From the IMG/VR virus record IMGVR_UViG_3300037041_001930: a stretch of 64,000 nucleotides of DNA; one strand, 5' to 3'. The position numbers and the translations under genes are program-made. The stretch comes from a virus. Taxonomy: Duplodnaviria; Caudoviricetes. The stretch's first letter is position 1. The number at the start of each line of letters is the position of its first letter. Below, piece after piece: positions 53,313-54,039 of this stretch. The notes beneath the pieces are model-generated. The model was not told the origin of the DNA and did not search any database. It saw nothing but the letters and a program-made list of their open reading frames with translations.

Positions 53313-53719
53313 GCGGCCTCCAGGCACTCGTAACCAATGCTTTGAATCGCATCGTAGTTTTCTGAAATCCAGAGAACCAGGCCACCCAGACTGGGTGGGT
53401 AGCCCTGCACCATGATGGCCCCTAGAATGGGGTACACCCCATTGCATCGCCATCGACCCGTGAGAACGAGATCCTTCGTGCCGTCTTCGCGATCCTCTAC
53501 CACAACCCAGTACCACTCATCGGCCCACCTGGATCTCGGTATTCTCACCTGGACATGCTTGTCCTCACTGAACCGATTACCCGTGACCTCGACTCGATTA
53601 TCCAGGTTGGCAAGGATGGAACCCCCGATGCCGTGAACACGGAGCTCATGAACACTCCTGGTGACCACATAGGGTACCAGATCAAGAGTAAGACTGAGTT
53701 GTCTGGGGTTCGTGGTCAT
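53309..53719 (-). CDS. hypothetical protein
   Basis: ATGA overlaps at both ends. Confidence 0.6.
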   Translation of the reverse strand: MTTNPRQLSLTLDLVPYVVTRSVHELRVHGIGGSILANLDNRVEVTGNRFSEDKHVQVRIPRSRWADEWYWVVVEDREDGTKDLVLTGRWRCNGVYPILGAIMVQGYPPSLGGLVLWISENYDAIQSIGYECLEAA

Positions 53720-54039
53720 CGCGTCACCTCGGCTTCACAGCGCAGGACCCCTGGGGCCGTCGCCGATGGTGAGACTTGGGCGAACCCGTATTGGAAGGCA
53801 CGTAGCCACTCCTGACCGGTCTTGGTGTCTGTGATGAGAAACACTGGGTTATTGCCGAACCCCCCTTCGAGAACCTTGGTTTCGATGAAACGTGGGGGCT
53901 TCACTTGGGGTGTATCAGCTTTGGAATCTGATGCCCCCCGGGTATATGCCTGGCCCAGGAACCCTAGAGCACAGACCACAAGAAGCACAGCAATCACGAT
54001 AAATAATTCGATGAGTGTAAAGCCTGATGTGGATTTCAT
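53716..54039 (-). CDS. type IV pilin-like (prepilin N-methylation motif) protein
   Basis: MKSTSG/FTLIELFIVIAVLLVVCALG: G(-1), F(+1), E(+5), ~20-aa hydrophobic helix. Confidence 0.75.
   Translation of the reverse strand: MKSTSGFTLIELFIVIAVLLVVCALGFLGQAYTRGASDSKADTPQVKPPRFIETKVLEGGFGNNPVFLITDTKTGQEWLRAFQYGFAQVSPSATAPGVLRCEAEVTR

Follow-up and report, generated by a model that had tools for sequence, protein, structure and literature searches.

A Small Protein of a Large Freshwater Phage Joins a Class III Signal to a Beta Domain Similar to Those of Small Phage Lipoproteins

Introduction

Whether a phage gene that opens like a type IV prepilin does encode a pilin, and what its product may do in the host, is the question raised by the locus studied here. 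Pilin-like proteins encoded by phages have been reported, namely P-FimU in F10-like prophages of Pseudomonas aeruginosa, P-PilA in Xylella prophages and a truncated PilA of ~60 residues in six virulent Pseudomonas phages (Sztanko et al., PMC12952977). Pilin-like genes of virulent phages were listed in the same work, and exclusion or inhibition of assembly was proposed for the truncated ones (PMC12952977). P-FimU is like FimU over ~180 residues and overlays on the FimU structure (PMC12952977).

The 107-aa protein reported here was originally predicted, from the letters of the DNA, to be a mini type IV pilin mimic that might poison the host pilus, mask a receptor or titrate the prepilin peptidase PilD. 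Its gene lies in a window of 64,000 nucleotides belonging to an IMG/VR virus record (IMGVR_UViG_3300037041_001930) of 171,559 bases, with a G+C content of 57% and an estimated completeness of 79%. The sequence comes from sediment and lake water metagenomes and belongs to a large uncultured freshwater phage.

Results

The ORF, which starts with ATG, is a real gene that was likewise called on two other assemblies, and its features are listed in Table 1. That it is phage-encoded was borne out by the virus record itself and by the terminase large subunit gene on the other strand (57317-59161); its other neighbors encode an SbcD-like metallophosphoesterase and an ankyrin protein with a signal peptide. 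The gene starts 8 nt past an ORF of 49-52 codons, and its stop codon overlaps, within ATGA, the start codon that follows. Given this tight spacing, the overlap and the weak ribosome-binding site (AGGGA, vs. AGGAG(G) at this position in several relatives), the gene belongs to a compact series of small genes, and a simple scan revealed no promoter-like site for this gene in particular. In a related strain, contigs from RNA libraries (two runs of a single study) include the gene, but they extend over most of the region as well and therefore do not demonstrate its transcription.

Some variation was observed in the surroundings of the gene. The basic 49-52-codon ORF just upstream (54048-54206, minus strand) is present in some relatives and missing in others, and in the latter the stop of the phosphoesterase gene directly overlaps the start of the prepilin-signal gene. 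The ankyrin-repeat gene (51599-52300, minus strand), whose product has a signal-peptide-like start, has a 14-bp terminator hairpin behind it; it is kept in most syntenic relatives and is missing from contig L004. In addition, IS605/TnpB-type elements are inserted in the small-gene region of two related phages (L021:12842-14649 and L001:10168-10581).

TABLE 1. Features of the prepilin-signal gene, in positions of the window.
Feature	Position	Strand	Basis
Gene of the class III signal protein with DUF6440-like beta domain, 107 aa	53716..54039	-	ORF call, family searches
Weak ribosome-binding site AGGGA, 5 nt ahead of ATG	54045..54049	-	sequence
Hydrophilic leader, residues 1-6, the last one Gly (-1)	54022..54039	-	sequence
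Cleavage and methylation motif G/FTLIEL (-1 to +6), under purifying selection	54004..54024	-	HMM matches, codon comparison
Hydrophobic membrane helix, residues 7-29; sequence variable past +10; without G14 and P22	53953..54021	-	
Polar Pro/Lys/Ser linker, residues 31-48; low pLDDT, indels, pN/pS 0.8-0.9	53896..53949	-	
Four-stranded beta-meander, residues 49-91, with invariant RF and DTxTGQxWL; like small phage lipoprotein/DUF6440-like domains	53767..53895	-	
C-terminal tail, residues 92-107, with invariant C-E-A; Cys101 is the sole invariant cysteine	53719..53766	-	

The prepilin-type start of the protein was confirmed. It consists of a leader (MKSTSG) with a single Lys, the G6/F7 site, T+2, E+5 and a hydrophobic tract extending to about residue 28. 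Class III signals are defined by a hydrophilic leader ending in Gly or Ala, followed by ~21 hydrophobic residues with Glu at +5 (PMC8179133), and the 107-aa protein has the Gly-ending leader, the hydrophobic stretch and Glu+5. Both models of the N-terminal methylation site matched above their cut-offs, as had been anticipated, albeit narrowly: PF07963 (N_methyl) gave 21.5 bits (cut-off of 21.2) and TIGR02532 gave 18.8 bits (cut-off of 16.3), the scores of the relatives with the latter being higher, up to 30 bits. The protein is the sole PF07963 match in the 171.6-kb record and, as a chance control, a PilFind-like motif followed by a helix was found in 1 of its 210 called genes. When the N-terminal 34 residues were shuffled, the strict motif arose in 9e-5 of the shuffles (9 per 100,000) and the loose motif rule in 7% of them. 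A prepilin peptidase gene was not found in the record, which is 79% complete, and this implies the use of the host enzyme. A weak PF07963 match in a more distant phage was dropped, as a long ORF occupies the opposite strand there.

Protein searches, which covered lengths near that of the query, revealed 18 clusters in two very different lineages of large phages (~56 and ~36% G+C). Thirteen of the 18 resemble the query at 50-70%, and the contigs read are syntenic phages of ~56% G+C and up to 217 kb. The remaining five are 34-38% identical to the query, the contigs read having 36-39% G+C and one of them a length of 418 kb. The residues that are invariant across the family (RF, DTxTGQxWL and C-E-A) are all in the C-terminal half; in lineage 1 the identity of the domain is 80% vs. 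39% for the helix, and both domain and tail are under purifying selection. A profile search of the full library added one new relative, P0020; its other matches were set aside, since they were either long repeat proteins that have nothing but the DTKTG hairpin word in common with the family, or noise from low-complexity sequence. The complete 180-kb relative, with 49% terminase identity, does not have the family, and so the gene is accessory. No relative of the family was found by pattern scan in 185,579 species genomes, and no match for the 107-aa protein among cultured phages or by metagenome pattern scans.

At least two other small genes are common to both lineages, which suggests a common gene pool or host. 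Two such genes, 37-45% identical between the 57% G+C phage and the 418-kb phage of 36% G+C, are located at 45373-45777 of the window (minus strand) and L015:5344-5886 (minus strand), and at L018:9580-9942 and ~15850-16300, respectively. In the second lineage, one of them is the immediate upstream neighbor of the prepilin-signal gene. The low-GC 418-kb phage is rich in DUF4116 genes, with at least nine within 20 kb (L018:1-20321), and the prepilin-signal gene is directly followed there by the gene of a 784-aa repeat protein. With respect to the host, the style of the leader is by itself insufficient to name a phylum. Judged by the capsid protein, Salmonella phage Arash and Vibrio phage D69 (26-27%) are the closest cultured phages, but they are too distant and have no PF07963 match, and a 164-aa lysozyme-like gene, considered as a host clue, had no match in the 185,579 species genomes or in cultured phages. 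The 164-aa protein (L015:5858-6352, minus strand) has a signal-peptide-like start and a lysozyme/transglycosylase-like look, and it matched nothing in Pfam or NCBIfam; likewise, no NCBIfam model matched a 1122-aa beta-helix protein.

Conservation of the signal was analyzed across the family. In 14 of the 18 clusters, spread over both lineages, G/A-1, F/L+1, T/S+2 and E+5 occur together. The pN/pS ratio, computed on nine genes with DNA, was 0.20-0.28 for the motif codons (pS 0.4-0.85) and 0.5-0.8 for the rest of the helix, with the linker as given in Table 1, while that of the beta domain within lineage 1 was 0.25, similar to the motif. In gap-free positions, pN was 0.22 at -1 to +6 vs. 0.44 at +7 to +21 (column permutation, p = 0.006); both this test and the pN/pS ratios are based on few codons, non-independent pairs, synonymous sites near saturation and genes that were anchored on the motif. 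Given the high synonymous change in the motif, the constraint is not at the DNA level. In the N-terminal part conservation is restricted to positions -1 to +6 plus I+10, and in contigs of a related strain residues 17-48 are swapped out with both flanks retained. The constrained motif codons, the near-free helix and linker and the replaceable residues 17-48 indicate selection on the cut-site motif and not merely on hydrophobicity. The motif is a genuine class III signal that is specifically retained by selection, including T+2 and E+5, whose pilin counterparts (Thr2 and Glu5) have a role in the assembly of the filament (PMC5059446).

The motif represents the ancestral state and is retained as a rule, yet it can disappear while the gene stays. 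In one clade (P0010, P0012 and P0033-35) all ten residues from -1 to +9 are changed and the remainder is kept. The DNA of this clade aligns without gaps to that of its sister P0007, with 50% identity over 30 nt and 89-100% in the flanks, which speaks against a frameshift or an inversion as the origin of the motif-less allele. All ten motif codons differ while the register is kept, and in five of them the change is a single base (L001:6016-6045 vs. L046:395-424). In a tree of linker and domain, with the motif excluded, the motif-less clade formed one derived branch, corresponding to a single loss, and its domain is still constrained (pN/pS 0.35). The pattern looks like either an accelerated, targeted loss, for which a switch of host or an escape from processing may be the cause, or the trace of recombination over a short tract. 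An Ala-Phe pair found four residues further on in the motif-less allele could be a putative degenerate cut site without E+5. As the clade keeps the protein, processing is not indispensable for the family. Other departures from the motif are T+2P and E+5K in P0008 and E+5D in P0031. The phage with the motif-less allele also has an extra 294-aa gene two genes upstream (L001:4964-5848), with a faint match to polysaccharide pyruvyl transferase.

Type IV pilins have a helix of ~50 residues, the second half of which is packed into the head, and in type IVa it contains Gly14 and Pro22 (PMC5059446, PMC8179133), although these two residues are not universal among pilins (PMC5059446). For the 107-aa protein, AlphaFold2 run with 13 sequences gave a helix at 9-34, pLDDT values below 50 at 33-44 and four strands within 51-89 (mean pLDDT 62.6), and a model of the domain only, with 18 sequences, had the same four strands at a pLDDT of 74 with the tail unresolved. 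Numbered on the mature protein, the helix extends to about residue 28; a disordered linker and a four-stranded beta-meander come next. The alpha1-C part is absent from the model, built from only 13 sequences, and in its place there is a polar linker with Pro44, 48 and 49, indels and near-neutral change. Leu occupies positions +14 and +22, and among the clusters Pro22 is found solely in P0011. Matches to pilin families and to solved pilins were almost confined to the N-terminal helix. PDB-wide fold searches revealed nothing at Z ≥5, the best matches (Z 4.5 and 4.8) being of unrelated fold and the absence of pilins from these lists being uninformative. The predicted topology is one membrane helix with the leader inside and the C-terminus outside the cytoplasm.

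The description as a mini pilin mimic was not supported as it stood: alpha1-C, G14 and P22 are lacking, the C-terminal domain points to small phage lipoproteins, and the structure prediction proposed along with that description yielded a helix, a low-confidence linker and a beta-meander and no miniature pilin. The region of ~75 aa behind the helix appears unlike a pilin head, as had been stated, but it is made of three parts (linker, ~31-48; beta-meander, 49-91; and tail, 92-107) and not of a single domain. The protein has the signal of a pilin without being a small pilin.

A profile of the domain alone retrieved, below the family, ten proteins of 80-109 aa (E 0.07-4) from about four families. 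Their anchors, nine lipoprotein-type signals and one plain helix, are absent from the query, and common to all ten are an upstream Arg (RF in most), the word DTKTGQE and then a Gly or a hydrophobic strand. The three outside matches examined sit on phage-like contigs, and two match PHROG 16585 strongly. When viral models were searched with the full model, small phage lipoproteins and DUF6440 proteins were at the top (E 0.06-0.3, none significant), and the Atlas searches led to DUF6440-rich clusters (feature score of 0.84 and TM of 0.55-0.60), with 46% DUF6440 in the cluster of TM 0.60. In addition, phrog_11767 matched P0032 weakly and the lipoprotein of Bacillus phage Grass strongly. The hhalign value of 97.9% against the look-alikes is inflated, as these had been picked by the shared word, and masking of this seven-residue word lowered their scores to -1.5 to 3 bits. 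PF20037 (DUF6440) did not reach its cut-off of 26.5 bits, without any match at E ≤10 in the genome or for 13 members, and the test of the profile against the Grass protein gave a probability of 2%. Since PF20037 is silent and little signal is left once the word is masked, the link to the lipoproteins is unproven; the kinship of the domain with those of DUF6440-like phage lipoproteins is probable, through a weak link. No function was described for DUF6440 in the literature searched. One lipoprotein look-alike (L028:6001-6297) is found directly after ninB in a P22-like phage, which places this type of domain in a very different phage group.

Discussion

Phage proteins with a prepilin motif are common, as there are several PHROG families and viral clusters of the Atlas that contain it. 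The short N_methyl proteins of phages (PHROG 13280, 10597, 11263, 27437 and 3433 'pilin', and Atlas viral clusters of 82 and 91 aa) share the N-terminal motif with the 107-aa protein, but they match mainly its first 22-33 residues and none of them does so over the beta domain. P-FimU, P-PilA and the truncated PilA have in common with it that they are phage-encoded, have a pilin-type N-terminus and are expected to enter the type IV pilus pathway of the host. However, they are whole or truncated pilin homologues, whereas the 107-aa protein has the signal alone plus an unrelated beta domain on a linker and lacks the full-length likeness to a host pilin of P-FimU and P-PilA. In contrast to this group, its gene is among small accessory genes near the terminase, outside the tail cluster, and is known from sequence only.

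The comparison with type IV pilins (PF07963 and TIGR02532) shows agreement in the short hydrophilic leader with Gly at its end, in F+1, T+2 and E+5 and in the hydrophobic tract of ~21 residues, but the 107-aa protein lacks the 50-residue alpha1, G14, P22 and the cysteine pair, its helix is variable past +10 and the motif is lost in one clade. In PilB of Streptococcus sanguinis, a modular pilin (PMC8179133), a class III signal likewise precedes a non-pilin module, which the filament machine presumably displays. Such modular pilins retain a small pilin module, whereas in the 107-aa protein only the signal and the membrane helix are left of it, and the gene is viral. On the side of the domain, DUF6440 (PF20037) proteins and small phage lipoproteins (Bacillus phage Grass; PHROG 16585, 11767 and 8801) share a length of 80-110 aa, an N-terminal anchor, a linker and a beta-meander with RF ... 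D-x-x-T-G-x-x-aromatic-L. The differences are the class III signal instead of a lipobox, the lack of a PF20037 score and the C-E-A tail, which is peculiar to the prepilin-signal family. In the literature searched we found no description of a class III signal joined to this beta domain, nor of an exchange of anchors in the DUF6440-like group.

The reading that we favor, at somewhat less than even chances, is that the host prepilin peptidase cleaves the protein, which would then engage a type IV filament machine, not as a structural subunit but as a decoy or as cargo; superinfection exclusion would be the most plausible purpose. The protein, with the class III signal and one membrane helix that its sequence encodes, would be placed with the leader inside and the C-terminus outside. 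The host peptidase would cut it at G6/F7, as suggested by established biochemistry and by the selection on the motif. The mature protein may then be accepted by the assembly machine of the pilus or the T2SS, because the T+2 and E+5 that it keeps serve assembly in pilins. Lacking alpha1-C and a pilin head, it could not stack as a normal subunit, so that its entry is expected to be rare, and the beta domain on its flexible tether may stall, cap or decorate the filament. The benefit would most likely be that the infected cell loses a surface receptor or has it masked, in analogy with the purpose attributed to P-FimU and the truncated phage PilA (PMC12952977).

In favor of this decoy or cargo subunit it must be considered that a plain anchor would have no need of G/F, T+2 and E+5 and, by analogy, that the published phage pilin-like proteins enter host pili and block phages (PMC12952977). 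Against it are the hypervariable helix past +10, which fits poorly with a regularly packed filament core, and the natural departures from the motif (the motif-less clade, T+2P/E+5K in P0008 and E+5D in P0031). Moreover, the nearest relatives of the domain use lipoprotein or plain-helix anchors, which means that this type of domain needs no pilus. The same relatives argue for another explanation, a close competitor that is only somewhat less probable, in which the beta domain is the working part and has the pilus-independent job of its lipoprotein relatives in the envelope, such as binding a host envelope protein, and the class III signal is one of three tethers, perhaps cleaved. The ten best outside matches are all anchored otherwise, the three look-alikes examined are on phage-like contigs and the fold search ranks small phage lipoproteins and DUF6440 first, none significantly; within the family, the motif-less clade retains helix and domain, and in lineage 1 the domain is better conserved than the helix. 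Nevertheless, an interchangeable anchor leaves unexplained the retention of G/F, T+2 and E+5 across two distant lineages while the adjacent helix drifts, and the lipoprotein link largely depends on a single seven-residue word and almost vanishes when it is masked.

The other explanations have much lower probabilities. Pilus poisoning, receptor masking and PilD titration had been proposed together, and titration is the least likely of them, because a decoy substrate would need no conserved extracytoplasmic domain. Competition for the host peptidase by an abundant decoy, with a reduction of all type IV filaments as the result, would agree with an N-terminal conservation found solely around the cut site and with a record in which no peptidase gene was found, but the purifying selection on the outer domain and tail, the turnover of a cleavable substrate, the weak ribosome-binding site and the negative promoter scan make it very unlikely. 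A functional substitute for a host minor pilin, as P-FimU, with a working pilus and a hidden phage-binding site, is similarly improbable: the class III signal is present and the head is a four-stranded antiparallel sheet, which is found in pilin heads too, but the pilin matches hardly go beyond the N-terminal helix, compared with the ~180 residues of P-FimU, and a low-confidence linker with Pro and indels replaces alpha1-C after residue 34. We give the least credit to a relic, that is, a signal acquired from a host gene by recombination that is decaying and no longer used. The motif has degenerated on three separate occasions in a small family (by replacement, by T+2P plus E+5K and by E+5D), which points in this direction, as does the complete 180-kb relative without the gene; however, the residues of the motif are kept in spite of synonymous sites near saturation.

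The block of rival phages by phage pilin-like proteins has been shown recently, and the tested case is a real pilin homologue. A signal joined to a phage-type domain would extend the trick from subunit replacement to the loading of foreign cargo. In this regard, the near-identical alleles with and without the motif (P0007 vs. P0012), together with the lipid-anchored look-alikes, are a natural experiment that could reveal the contribution of the signal. A broader and rather unlikely proposal is that a widespread DUF6440-like phage envelope domain may be routed by interchangeable signals, namely a lipid anchor, a plain helix or a prepilin signal that rides the pilus or T2SS machine of the host to the target. 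If this were true, phages would exploit type IV filaments to deliver cargo other than pilins, the routing would be switchable in evolution via the rewriting of ten codons, and a first approach to the function of the entire DUF6440-like domain group would be at hand.
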